Shown here: positions 5,828-7,158 of the stretch, in pieces
Position numbering within the stretch: position 1 is the stretch's first letter
Layout: each line of letters starts with the position of its first letter
From: Eledone cirrhosa
Taxonomy: Eukaryota
Reading direction: 5' to 3'
NCBI GenBank assembly: GCA_964016885.1
Contig: OZ024747.1
Coordinates: 66,836,001 to 66,900,000, forward strand
Length of the DNA: 64,000 bases
Notes under the pieces: generated by a model
Told to the model about the DNA's origin: nothing
What the model saw: the letters and a program-made list of their open reading frames with translations, nothing else
Database searches by the model: none
Translations under genes and position numbers: made by a program

Positions 5828-7158
5828 TTAGAATTGTAGCTCTGAAATAGCAATATATATATGGATGTAAATATAATGTATTTTGCAATACACTTTATGC
5901 TTAATTAAAAGCATTTTGAAGACCGTAAGCTATTGTTTTAAAGTAGTGACAAATTCACTCACTTCGATCTCAGCAAACAGGAGGAGATAAGCCGACATGA
6001 CATGTTTCGCTTTTGTTGAAGCTTATCAAGGCCAACTACCCCGCCCGTCTGCTGAGATTAATGATGTTATATTCTTATAGAAATCTAGTAAATAATCAGG
6101 AGCTGATTACGCAGAGCGGTTGTTGGTCAGGCAGAAATTAAAAATTAGAATTGTAGCTCTGAAATAGCAATATATATATGGATGTAAATATAATGTATTT
6201 AATGTAAATATATTGCTATTTCAGAGCTACAATTCTAATTTTTAATTTCTGCCTGACCAACAACCGCTCTGCGTAATCAGCTCCTGATTATTTACTAGAT
6301 TTCTATAAGAATATAACATCATTAATCTCAGCAGACGGGCGGGGTAGTTGGCCTTGATAAGCTTCAACAAAAGCGAAACATGTCATGTCGGCTTATCTCC
6401 TCCTGTTTGCTGAGATCGAAGTGAGTGAATTTGTCACTACTTTAAAACAATAGCTTACGGTCTTCAAAATGCTTTTAATTAAGCATAAAGTGTATTGCAA
6501 AATACATTATATTTACATCCATATATATATATTGCTATTTCAGAGCTACAATTCTAATTTTTAATTTCTGCCTGACCAACAACCGCTCTGCGTAATCAGC
6601 TCCTGATTATTTACTAGATTTCTATAAGAATATAACATCATTAATCTCAGCAGACGGGCGGGGTAGTTGGCCTTGATAAGCTTCAACAAAAGCGAAACAT
6701 GTCATGTCGGCTTATCTCCTCCTGTTTGCTGAGATCGAAGTGAGTGAATTTGTCACTACTTTAAAACAATAGCTTACGGTCTTCAAAATGCTTTTAATTA
6801 AGCATAAAGTGTATTGCAAAATACATTATATTTACATCCATATATATATTGCTATTTCAGAGCTACAATTCTAATTTTTAATTTCTGCCTGACCAACAAC
6901 CGCTCTGCGTAATCAGCTCCTGATTATTTACTAGATTTCTATAAGAATATAACATCATTAATCTCAGCAGACGGGCGGGGTAGTTGGCCTTGATAAGCTT
7001 CAACATAAGCGAAACATGTCATGTCGGCTTATCTCCTCCTGTTTGCTGAGATCGAAGTGAGTGAATTTGTCACTACTTTAAAACAATAGCTTACGGTCTT
7101 CAAAATGCTTTTAATTAAGCATAAAGTGTATTGCAAAATACATTATATTTACATCCAT
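5828..7158 (+). mobile_element. ORF-less Penelope pLTR/retrozyme-like array: ~1.2 inverted units, then 3 direct ~318-bp units, in (TA)n
   Basis: ATTGCTATTTCAGAGC recurs at 6212, 6531 and 6848; 5828-6198 is the reverse complement; one hammerhead fold per unit; TA tracts on both sides. Confidence 0.8.
6350..6393 (+). ncRNA. Type I hammerhead ribozyme, U3-A8 core (also 6669-6712, 6986-7029 and minus 5990-6033)
   Basis: GGCC-TTGATAA-GCTT caacaa AAGC-GAAA-CATG t CATG-TC-GGCT; predicted GUC cleavage site; stem I extends through ATCTCAGCAGACGGG/CCTGTTTGCTGAGAT. Confidence 0.85.

Follow-up and report, generated by a model that had tools for sequence, protein, structure and literature searches.

The tandem array at 5827-7157 of the window (the whole 64,000-nucleotide stretch of Eledone cirrhosa contig OZ024747.1 analysed here) is very probably a single insertion of a high-copy, non-coding repeat that carries a hammerhead ribozyme motif with a U3-A8 core; the insertion was likely placed by the protein of a Penelope-like element (PLE), and the repeat is likely a non-LTR retrozyme. 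The units are tandem, non-coding, below 50% in GC content and present in many copies (1,323 contigs of one public run, X3, whose species may differ). The retrozyme-like identity proposed in an earlier note, which was made from the letters alone, is supported by three direct non-coding units of 317-319 nt, each with its own hammerhead.

Organization of the array

When one unit was aligned to the window by BLAST, four full 317-nt copies were found, three on the plus strand (6205-6521, 6524-6840, and 6841-7157) and one on the minus strand (6178-5862), with identities of 99.7-100%; two short pieces, of 22 nt (6200-6179) and 35 nt (5861-5827), prolong the inverted arm (Table 1). The direct units are spaced by 319 and 317 bp, a difference of one AT step, and this step, one loop-2 base in the third unit and one junction-end base in the first are the differences among the units. 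The direct arm is non-coding, with a longest stop-free frame of 46 aa and a GC content of 0.348, so that the earlier description of three direct units and one inverted unit of about 318 bp, all ORF-less, is borne out. No ORF combining reverse transcriptase (RT) and GIY-YIG domains was found within the insert, which thus does not qualify as an autonomous PLE. At the head-to-head junction, 6202-6212 repeats 6182-6192, and ATATA overlaps with the start of the direct arm; to judge from these letters, the overlap and repeat look like microhomology or templated filler. The unit has no match to the Pol III A or B box patterns used, and microRNA matches were dismissed as microsatellite noise. Two minisatellites lie just upstream of the array, one with a 36-bp unit (13 copies, 100%) at 2683-3152 and the other with a 41-bp unit (34 copies, 97%) at 3200-4579.

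Table 1. Positions in the window of the array, its predicted hammerheads, and related neighbouring elements
Feature	Position	Strand	Details	Basis
(TA)n microsatellite, left outer end	5798..5826		Likely target site	Sequence
One-sided tail	5827..5861	-	35 nt, start of next unit; ends at site B (unit position 35, 6558-equivalent)	BLAST
Inverted arm	5827..6200	-	374 nt: 22 nt of unit end, one full unit, and tail	
Hammerhead, inverted arm	5967..6058	-	Core at 6029; predicted cut after 5994	
Head-to-head junction	6201..6212			Sequence
Direct arm	6205..7157	+	Three units (319, 317, and 317 nt); ends at site A (6519-6530-equivalent) in AT run	
Type I hammerhead, unit 1	6325..6416	+	Predicted cut after C6389; outer stem I 6325-6344/6397-6416 (15+4 bp); stem I 6350-53/6390-93; U3-A8 core 6354-6360; stem II 6361-64/6371-74; GAAA 6375-78; helix III strand 6378-6388 (near-palindromic)	
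Post-cut segment	6417..6558	+	Three small predicted hairpins and both end sites; similar to sister element	
Hammerhead, unit 2	6644..6735	+	Predicted cut after 6708	
Hammerhead, unit 3	6961..7052	+	One loop-2 change; predicted cut after 7025	
(TA)n microsatellite, right outer end	7158..7183			Sequence
Sister two-armed insertion	10794..11324		C3-G8 hammerhead, long stem I, ~40-nt one-sided tail, TA-rich ends	
GIY-YIG remnant in two-armed insertion	14004-14747	-	No Pfam match	Atlas neighbours include GIY-YIG clusters
GIY-YIG remnant in two-armed insertion	46877-47287		CX4CxxC linker	Pfam GIY-YIG, E 7e-8

A hammerhead motif in each unit

The core UUGAUAA occurs at 6354, 6673, and 6990 on the plus strand and at 6029 on the minus strand, each time followed by helix II (4 bp, closed by a loop of 6 nt), GAAA, the helix III strand, and GUC. 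The motif has the core boxes with a 3-8 pair, GAAA, an NUH site, and three helices in the order of a type I hammerhead. It aligns over its full length with the Rfam family Hammerhead_HH9 (RF02275; 31.1 bits, E 2e-6), including loop 2 and helix II, but differs from that family in its U3-A8 core and one stem I mismatch; because this score lies under the gathering score of 52, a gathering-level Rfam scan of the whole window returned no matches. The hammerhead descriptor was matched by one of 10,000 dinucleotide-shuffled units, and the segment 6322-6420 folds with a z score of -6.4, none of 200 shuffles being as stable. The long extended stem I at 6325-6416 that had been noticed from the letters is thus upheld by the 15+4-bp outer stem and its stability, whereas the CAUG u CAUG of the same description cannot form a stem, a loop of one base being too short to be closed by pairing. 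A search with the 23-letter hammerhead motif gave no matches in metagenome contigs and none in viral contigs.

The reading of U3-A8 as a compensated change from C3-G8 is supported by a natural and active covariant: the covariation of C3-G8 to U3-A8 was described by Perreault et al. in 2011, its activity having been shown even earlier (PMC3088659). U3-A8 was subsequently found by Cervera and de la Pena in 2014 by way of the Schistosoma PLE Cercyon, and a dedicated descriptor yielded ~1,300 matches in Schistosoma (PMC4209133). The core is therefore not the surprise for which the earlier note took it; the element itself is ordinary, and its U3-A8 core is not unusual. Other U3-A8 motifs occur in the window, on a PLE arm (48243/45740) and at 36932 on the minus strand, the latter being related to a C3-G8 hammerhead-like motif at 42542 on the plus strand (87% alike over 46 nt).

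Predicted folding of the monomer, dimer, and circle

The lowest-energy fold of the monomer is not a hammerhead: the register of stem I is slipped, and the core is paired with the helix III strand. An active-like fold lies 5.3 kcal/mol higher and makes up ~8e-5 of the ensemble in a model that leaves tertiary contacts outside, and helix III of the monomer cannot exceed 4 bp, capped by a GUC loop. The near-palindromic strand 6378-6388 self-pairs at -10.5 kcal/mol and is suited to pairing between two units. In the dimer (6325-6735), both helices II and a cross-unit helix III are present in the unconstrained minimum-energy fold, and constraining the dimer to the full double hammerhead costs 3.1 kcal/mol relative to the free ensemble, as against 15.1 kcal/mol for two single hammerheads. 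Together with the misfolding of the monomer, these energetics predict dimer-dependent cutting, in which a single unit would be inactive and only dimers would cut; while transcription is under way, units might become locked into the monomer fold by the long outer stem. Dimer-dependent cutting has been described for metazoan type I hammerheads (PMC4209133) and in axolotl (PMC7229834).

A circular unit folds with a z score of -4.3, owed mainly to the hammerhead stem (z -1.3 for the part outside the hammerhead), and is 52% paired, compared with 56% in 150 shuffles. The post-cut segment 6417-6558 folds weakly alone (z -1.4), and its weak long-range helix is broken by one of three variants.

Relatives in public runs

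The stretch is present in six public runs from four studies, and five runs, of unrecorded kind, were compared, all as contigs; no RNA run is listed among the six, which is uninformative on expression. In run X3, 1,323 contigs align to one unit, of which 175 are at least 99% identical, 321 are 95-99%, 564 are 90-95%, and 263 are below 90% identical, although depth gives no copy number and the organism of the run may differ from the species of the window. The repeat family is large and varied in the organism of run X3.

Seven places of substitution are listed over 6290-6450, these counts coming from that listing alone and not from a separate, incomplete table. Five of them keep the pair (C6332U, G6334A, G6337A, G6350A, and G6418A), one is unpaired (C6340A), and one lies in helix III (A6385U); none falls in the 13 positions of the core, a result that is not significant alone (chance ~0.55). 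In helix II, U6363-A6372 is exchanged on both sides for A-U in one consensus of four X4 contigs, and in two X3 contigs and one X4 contig a variant helix III strand is a perfect 12-nt palindrome, with UUGAUAA kept. Both swaps are read from the loose-end letters of few contigs, eight more loose-end rows being unlisted. The two-sided swaps in helices II and III, along with a palindromic helix III in both variants, argue for selection on the fold and on the self-complementarity of helix III, for which the evidence from these letters is modest but real. Most copies (88% of X3 depth) lack the bulged U6401, and in one X4 contig GAAA is preceded by an additional A.

At the equivalents of 6592, all four units of the window have G, whereas ~99% of X3 depth and the nearest contigs of runs X1 and X2 have A. 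With 6337 and 6418 included, the units of the window carry G at three positions for which 91-99% of X3 depth has A, and two of these positions fall within predicted stems; this is compatible with A-to-I editing before reverse transcription, X3 perhaps representing another species.

Two contigs were considered as signs of a circle and rejected. A 347-nt self-closing contig of run X1 (317 + 30) is what tandem DNA would give as well, and the kind of run is unrecorded. The head-to-tail joint in a contig of run X2 belongs to one unit bounded by GATC, with letters of a religation-type junction; we take this contig to be most likely the product of a DNA proximity library, as judged from its junction pattern.

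Insertion footprint

The arms are arranged head to head and point apart, with 374 nt on the minus strand, 953 nt on the plus strand, and (TA)n at the outer end of each. The minus arm extends beyond the stop point of the plus arm by 35 nt according to BLAST, or by 28-39 nt once the ambiguity of the AT run is allowed for. Downstream of the predicted cut, one end site is reached after 130-141 nt and the other after 169 nt, so that the two are ~35 nt apart. The tail end (site B), followed by (AT)n, recurs in three contigs of the independent run X3, and the end of the plus arm (site A) was not seen among the 11 loose-end rows listed of 109 in that run. A target-site duplication would be unreadable inside (TA)n.

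The insertion thus combines a head-to-head inverted copy, a one-sided tail within the 30-40-bp range, and an AT-rich (TA)n target. This is the published footprint of PLE insertions, which consists of a tandem with an adjacent inverted copy, a tail of 30-40 bp at one end, and a bias towards microsatellites (PMC8557442; Arkhipova et al. 2013, PMC3846280). According to the available text of Frangieh et al. 2024 (PMC11167929), AT-rich DNA is cut on both strands by the purified protein of an anole PLE, which also extends the two strands, and the RNA of this element has two internal starts downstream of the hammerhead whose spacing equals the tail, so that the end sites lie downstream of the hammerhead there as they do here. 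Mobilization by a PLE, as the earlier note had proposed, fits the inverted arm, the one-sided 35-nt tail, and the (TA)n at both ends, although these features, which are the strongest evidence for it, had been overlooked. Unlike endonuclease-bearing PLE insertions, the insert has no RT/GIY-YIG ORF, and both of its arms exceed one unit; multicopy head-to-tail insertions have been described for putatively non-autonomous Chlamys elements (Craig et al. 2021, PMC8557442). Twin priming of the L1 type was set aside as an explanation, with the outer end of the inverted arm overlapping the inner start of the direct arm by ~32 nt, a feature that recurs in other copies. The post-cut segment 6417-6558 would be a candidate site for PLE-protein binding and the start of copying.

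Template and proposed mechanism

In the mechanism that we propose, tandem copies would be transcribed, and two adjacent units would pair by their self-complementary helix III strands to make a double hammerhead, which would cut after GUC. Cutting would yield ~318-nt monomers, open to closure by a ligase of the host. Both strands of a (TA)n tract would be cut by a PLE RT-endonuclease, copying would start at two fixed internal sites ~35 nt apart and 130-169 nt past the cut, one for each DNA end, and the two cDNAs would be joined head to head by microhomology. Action of a PLE protein on a retrozyme circle has been proposed previously (Cervera and de la Pena 2020, PMC7229834).

The arms themselves bear on the nature of the template. 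The hammerhead cut site, at unit position 186, is crossed three times in the plus arm and once in the minus arm, and the inner ends of the arms lie at unit positions 296 and 1-4. A linear monomer cut at both hammerheads would support a cDNA of at most 169 nt from these starts, so that, barring repeated template jumps, the crossing of the cut site points to an uncut multimer or a closed circle. The template was therefore likely an uncut multimer or a re-closed circle, with about equal weight on each, and not a cut linear monomer. The G shared at the equivalents of 6592 fits one template molecule and also fits a homogeneous donor array. A more specific version, to which we give somewhat less than an even chance, is that the insertion is the direct footprint of a PLE protein that reverse-transcribed a single ~318-nt RNA circle over several turns, working from each end of a cut (TA)n tract and beginning at two fixed sites in the structured post-cut segment, and that this segment is a docking signal common to the U3-A8 family and its C3-G8 sister family.

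Neighbouring elements in the window

The sister element, 3.6 kb from the array, has an intact core in its minus-strand arm (10982) and has lost GAAA in its plus (right) arm. Its alignment with the unit scores 40, compared with 20.9 +/- 3.1 for shuffles (0 of 200 as high), and none of the other neighbouring segments, six in all having been compared on both strands, matches the unit clearly on the same strand. For the post-cut segments of the unit and the sister element, the score is 102, compared with 68.5 +/- 6.2 (0 of 1,000 shuffles), the region and penalties having been chosen after the first result. The two sister arms differ at eight places in their aligned part, and all six transitions run from A/T on the left to G/C on the right (sense strand); these could be scars of A-to-I editing or CpG decay.

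Two GIY-YIG remnants, both within two-armed insertions adjoining TA tracts, show the presence of PLEs in this genome; the window yielded none that could be named as parent or helper. The remnant at 14004-14747 carries the CxCX5C, CxxC, and CxH motifs known from the Hydra clade. When the unit was compared with the pLTRs or ends of the two PLE remnants, BLAST found no match, and the best alignment (3 of 200 shuffles, opposite strand) is not meaningful. The two-armed insertion around the Hydra-like remnant (12436-16440) has a one-sided extension of ~85 nt, and its hammerhead-like motifs, at 12622 (-) and 16341 (+), have a long helix II. The other two-armed PLE remnant (45631-48352) carries its U3-A8 hammerhead-like motif at 45740 (-) and 48243 (+), its arms end at nearly one site, and an 87-88% copy of its end lies at 11962-12453.

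Seven tandem units of ~564 bp occupy 37361-41673, together with an inverted arm (37698-37361), a one-sided extension of ~120 nt, and (TA)n ends. No complete hammerhead was found in this array by the descriptor or Rfam, CUGAUGA being present without a following GAAA, and Rfam likewise reported no hammerhead in the sister element. Open frames of 982 and 1,216 aa with the RT of non-LTR retrotransposons lie in 29496-36511 and 52280-61600, and large inverted copies of these ORFs are ~97-99% identical over 3-5 kb.

Alternative explanations

A first alternative, which we consider unlikely, is that the unit is the pLTR of an autonomous PLE and the array a pLTR-only, 5'-truncated insertion without an RNA life cycle of its own. 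The layout is that of PLE insertions (PMC8557442; PMC3846280), U3-A8 was first seen in animals by way of a PLE (PMC4209133), retrozymes are related to pLTRs, those of Xenopus matching PLE pLTRs in a 2026 preprint by Li, Clavereau and Pollet (bioRxiv 10.64898/2026.07.22.740005), and in one contig of run X6 the hammerhead stem is preceded by 122 unrelated letters. The hammerheads of PLE pLTRs, including the Schistosoma Cercyon variant, resemble those of the array in U3-A8, type I order, a palindromic helix III region, and predicted action as dimers (PMC4209133). They are, however, mostly minimal (helix II of 7-8 bp and little helix III) and single in the available text of that paper, whereas the units here are joined head to tail, ORF-less, and canonical in build, with a 4-bp helix II and a 6-nt loop 2 like that of Rfam HH9. 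In addition, the share of X3 contigs that continue into unlike sequence is listed as 0, though such contigs are short.

Slightly less probable still is that the hammerhead is a passenger that has ceased to cut in vivo, with a PLE protein copying read-through RNA and the tandems growing by DNA duplication. The predicted misfolding of the monomer and the run of both arms through the cut site would agree with this, as would published experiments: the hammerhead of the anole PLE requires protein for cutting, insertion in vitro proceeds without it and was unaffected by hammerhead mutations, and none of the RNA-seq reads terminated at its cut site (PMC11167929), while one of nine Xenopus retrozyme dimers was cleaved and the other eight were not (bioRxiv 10.64898/2026.07.22.740005). 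On the other hand, the two-sided swaps in helices II and III and the palindromic helix III of both variants suggest selection on the fold, and the free dimer fold already contains both helices II and the cross-unit helix III. An artefact of assembly or library preparation is very improbable as the source of the inverted and tandem layout: the near-identity of the units (99.7-100%) and the difficulty of assembling such structures (PMC8557442) would speak for it, but both the tail end and the joint between head-to-tail units are found again in independent runs, and the window holds five more inverted or two-armed structures with TA-rich ends.

Comparison with known retrozymes and significance

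We retain the reading of the array as an insertion of a likely retrozyme, probably placed by a PLE protein. On every sequence feature compared, it belongs with the metazoan non-LTR retrozymes, and we regard it as a likely new family within an already known type of animal mobile element. As described in the available text of PMC7229834 and bioRxiv 10.64898/2026.07.22.740005, these retrozymes share with the array tandem non-coding units of 150-450 bp, a GC content below 50%, one type I hammerhead per unit, and a PLE as the proposed helper, and the dimer-favouring palindromic helix III has a counterpart in axolotl HHR_Amex1 (PMC7229834). The array differs in its U3-A8 core and its 15-bp stem I extension; the inverted arm and tail are undescribed for retrozymes in the available text of PMC7229834 and bioRxiv 10.64898/2026.07.22.740005. 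Among the 15 titles listed of 18 papers that a literature search found, none concerns cephalopod retrozymes, and the words hammerhead, ribozyme, and retrozyme are absent from the main text of a 2026 octopus repeat annotation. Gathering-level Rfam searches and searches for CUGANGA undercount hammerheads here, the window holding several hammerhead-like families and no gathering-level match.

The value of the array lies in its use as a test case for the re-entry of retrozymes into the genome, a step that is proposed but undemonstrated in the available text of PMC7229834 and bioRxiv 10.64898/2026.07.22.740005. The family could enter the published in vitro PLE assay directly: its template is compact and non-coding, both start sites have been mapped, and its ribozyme is predicted to act only as a dimer.
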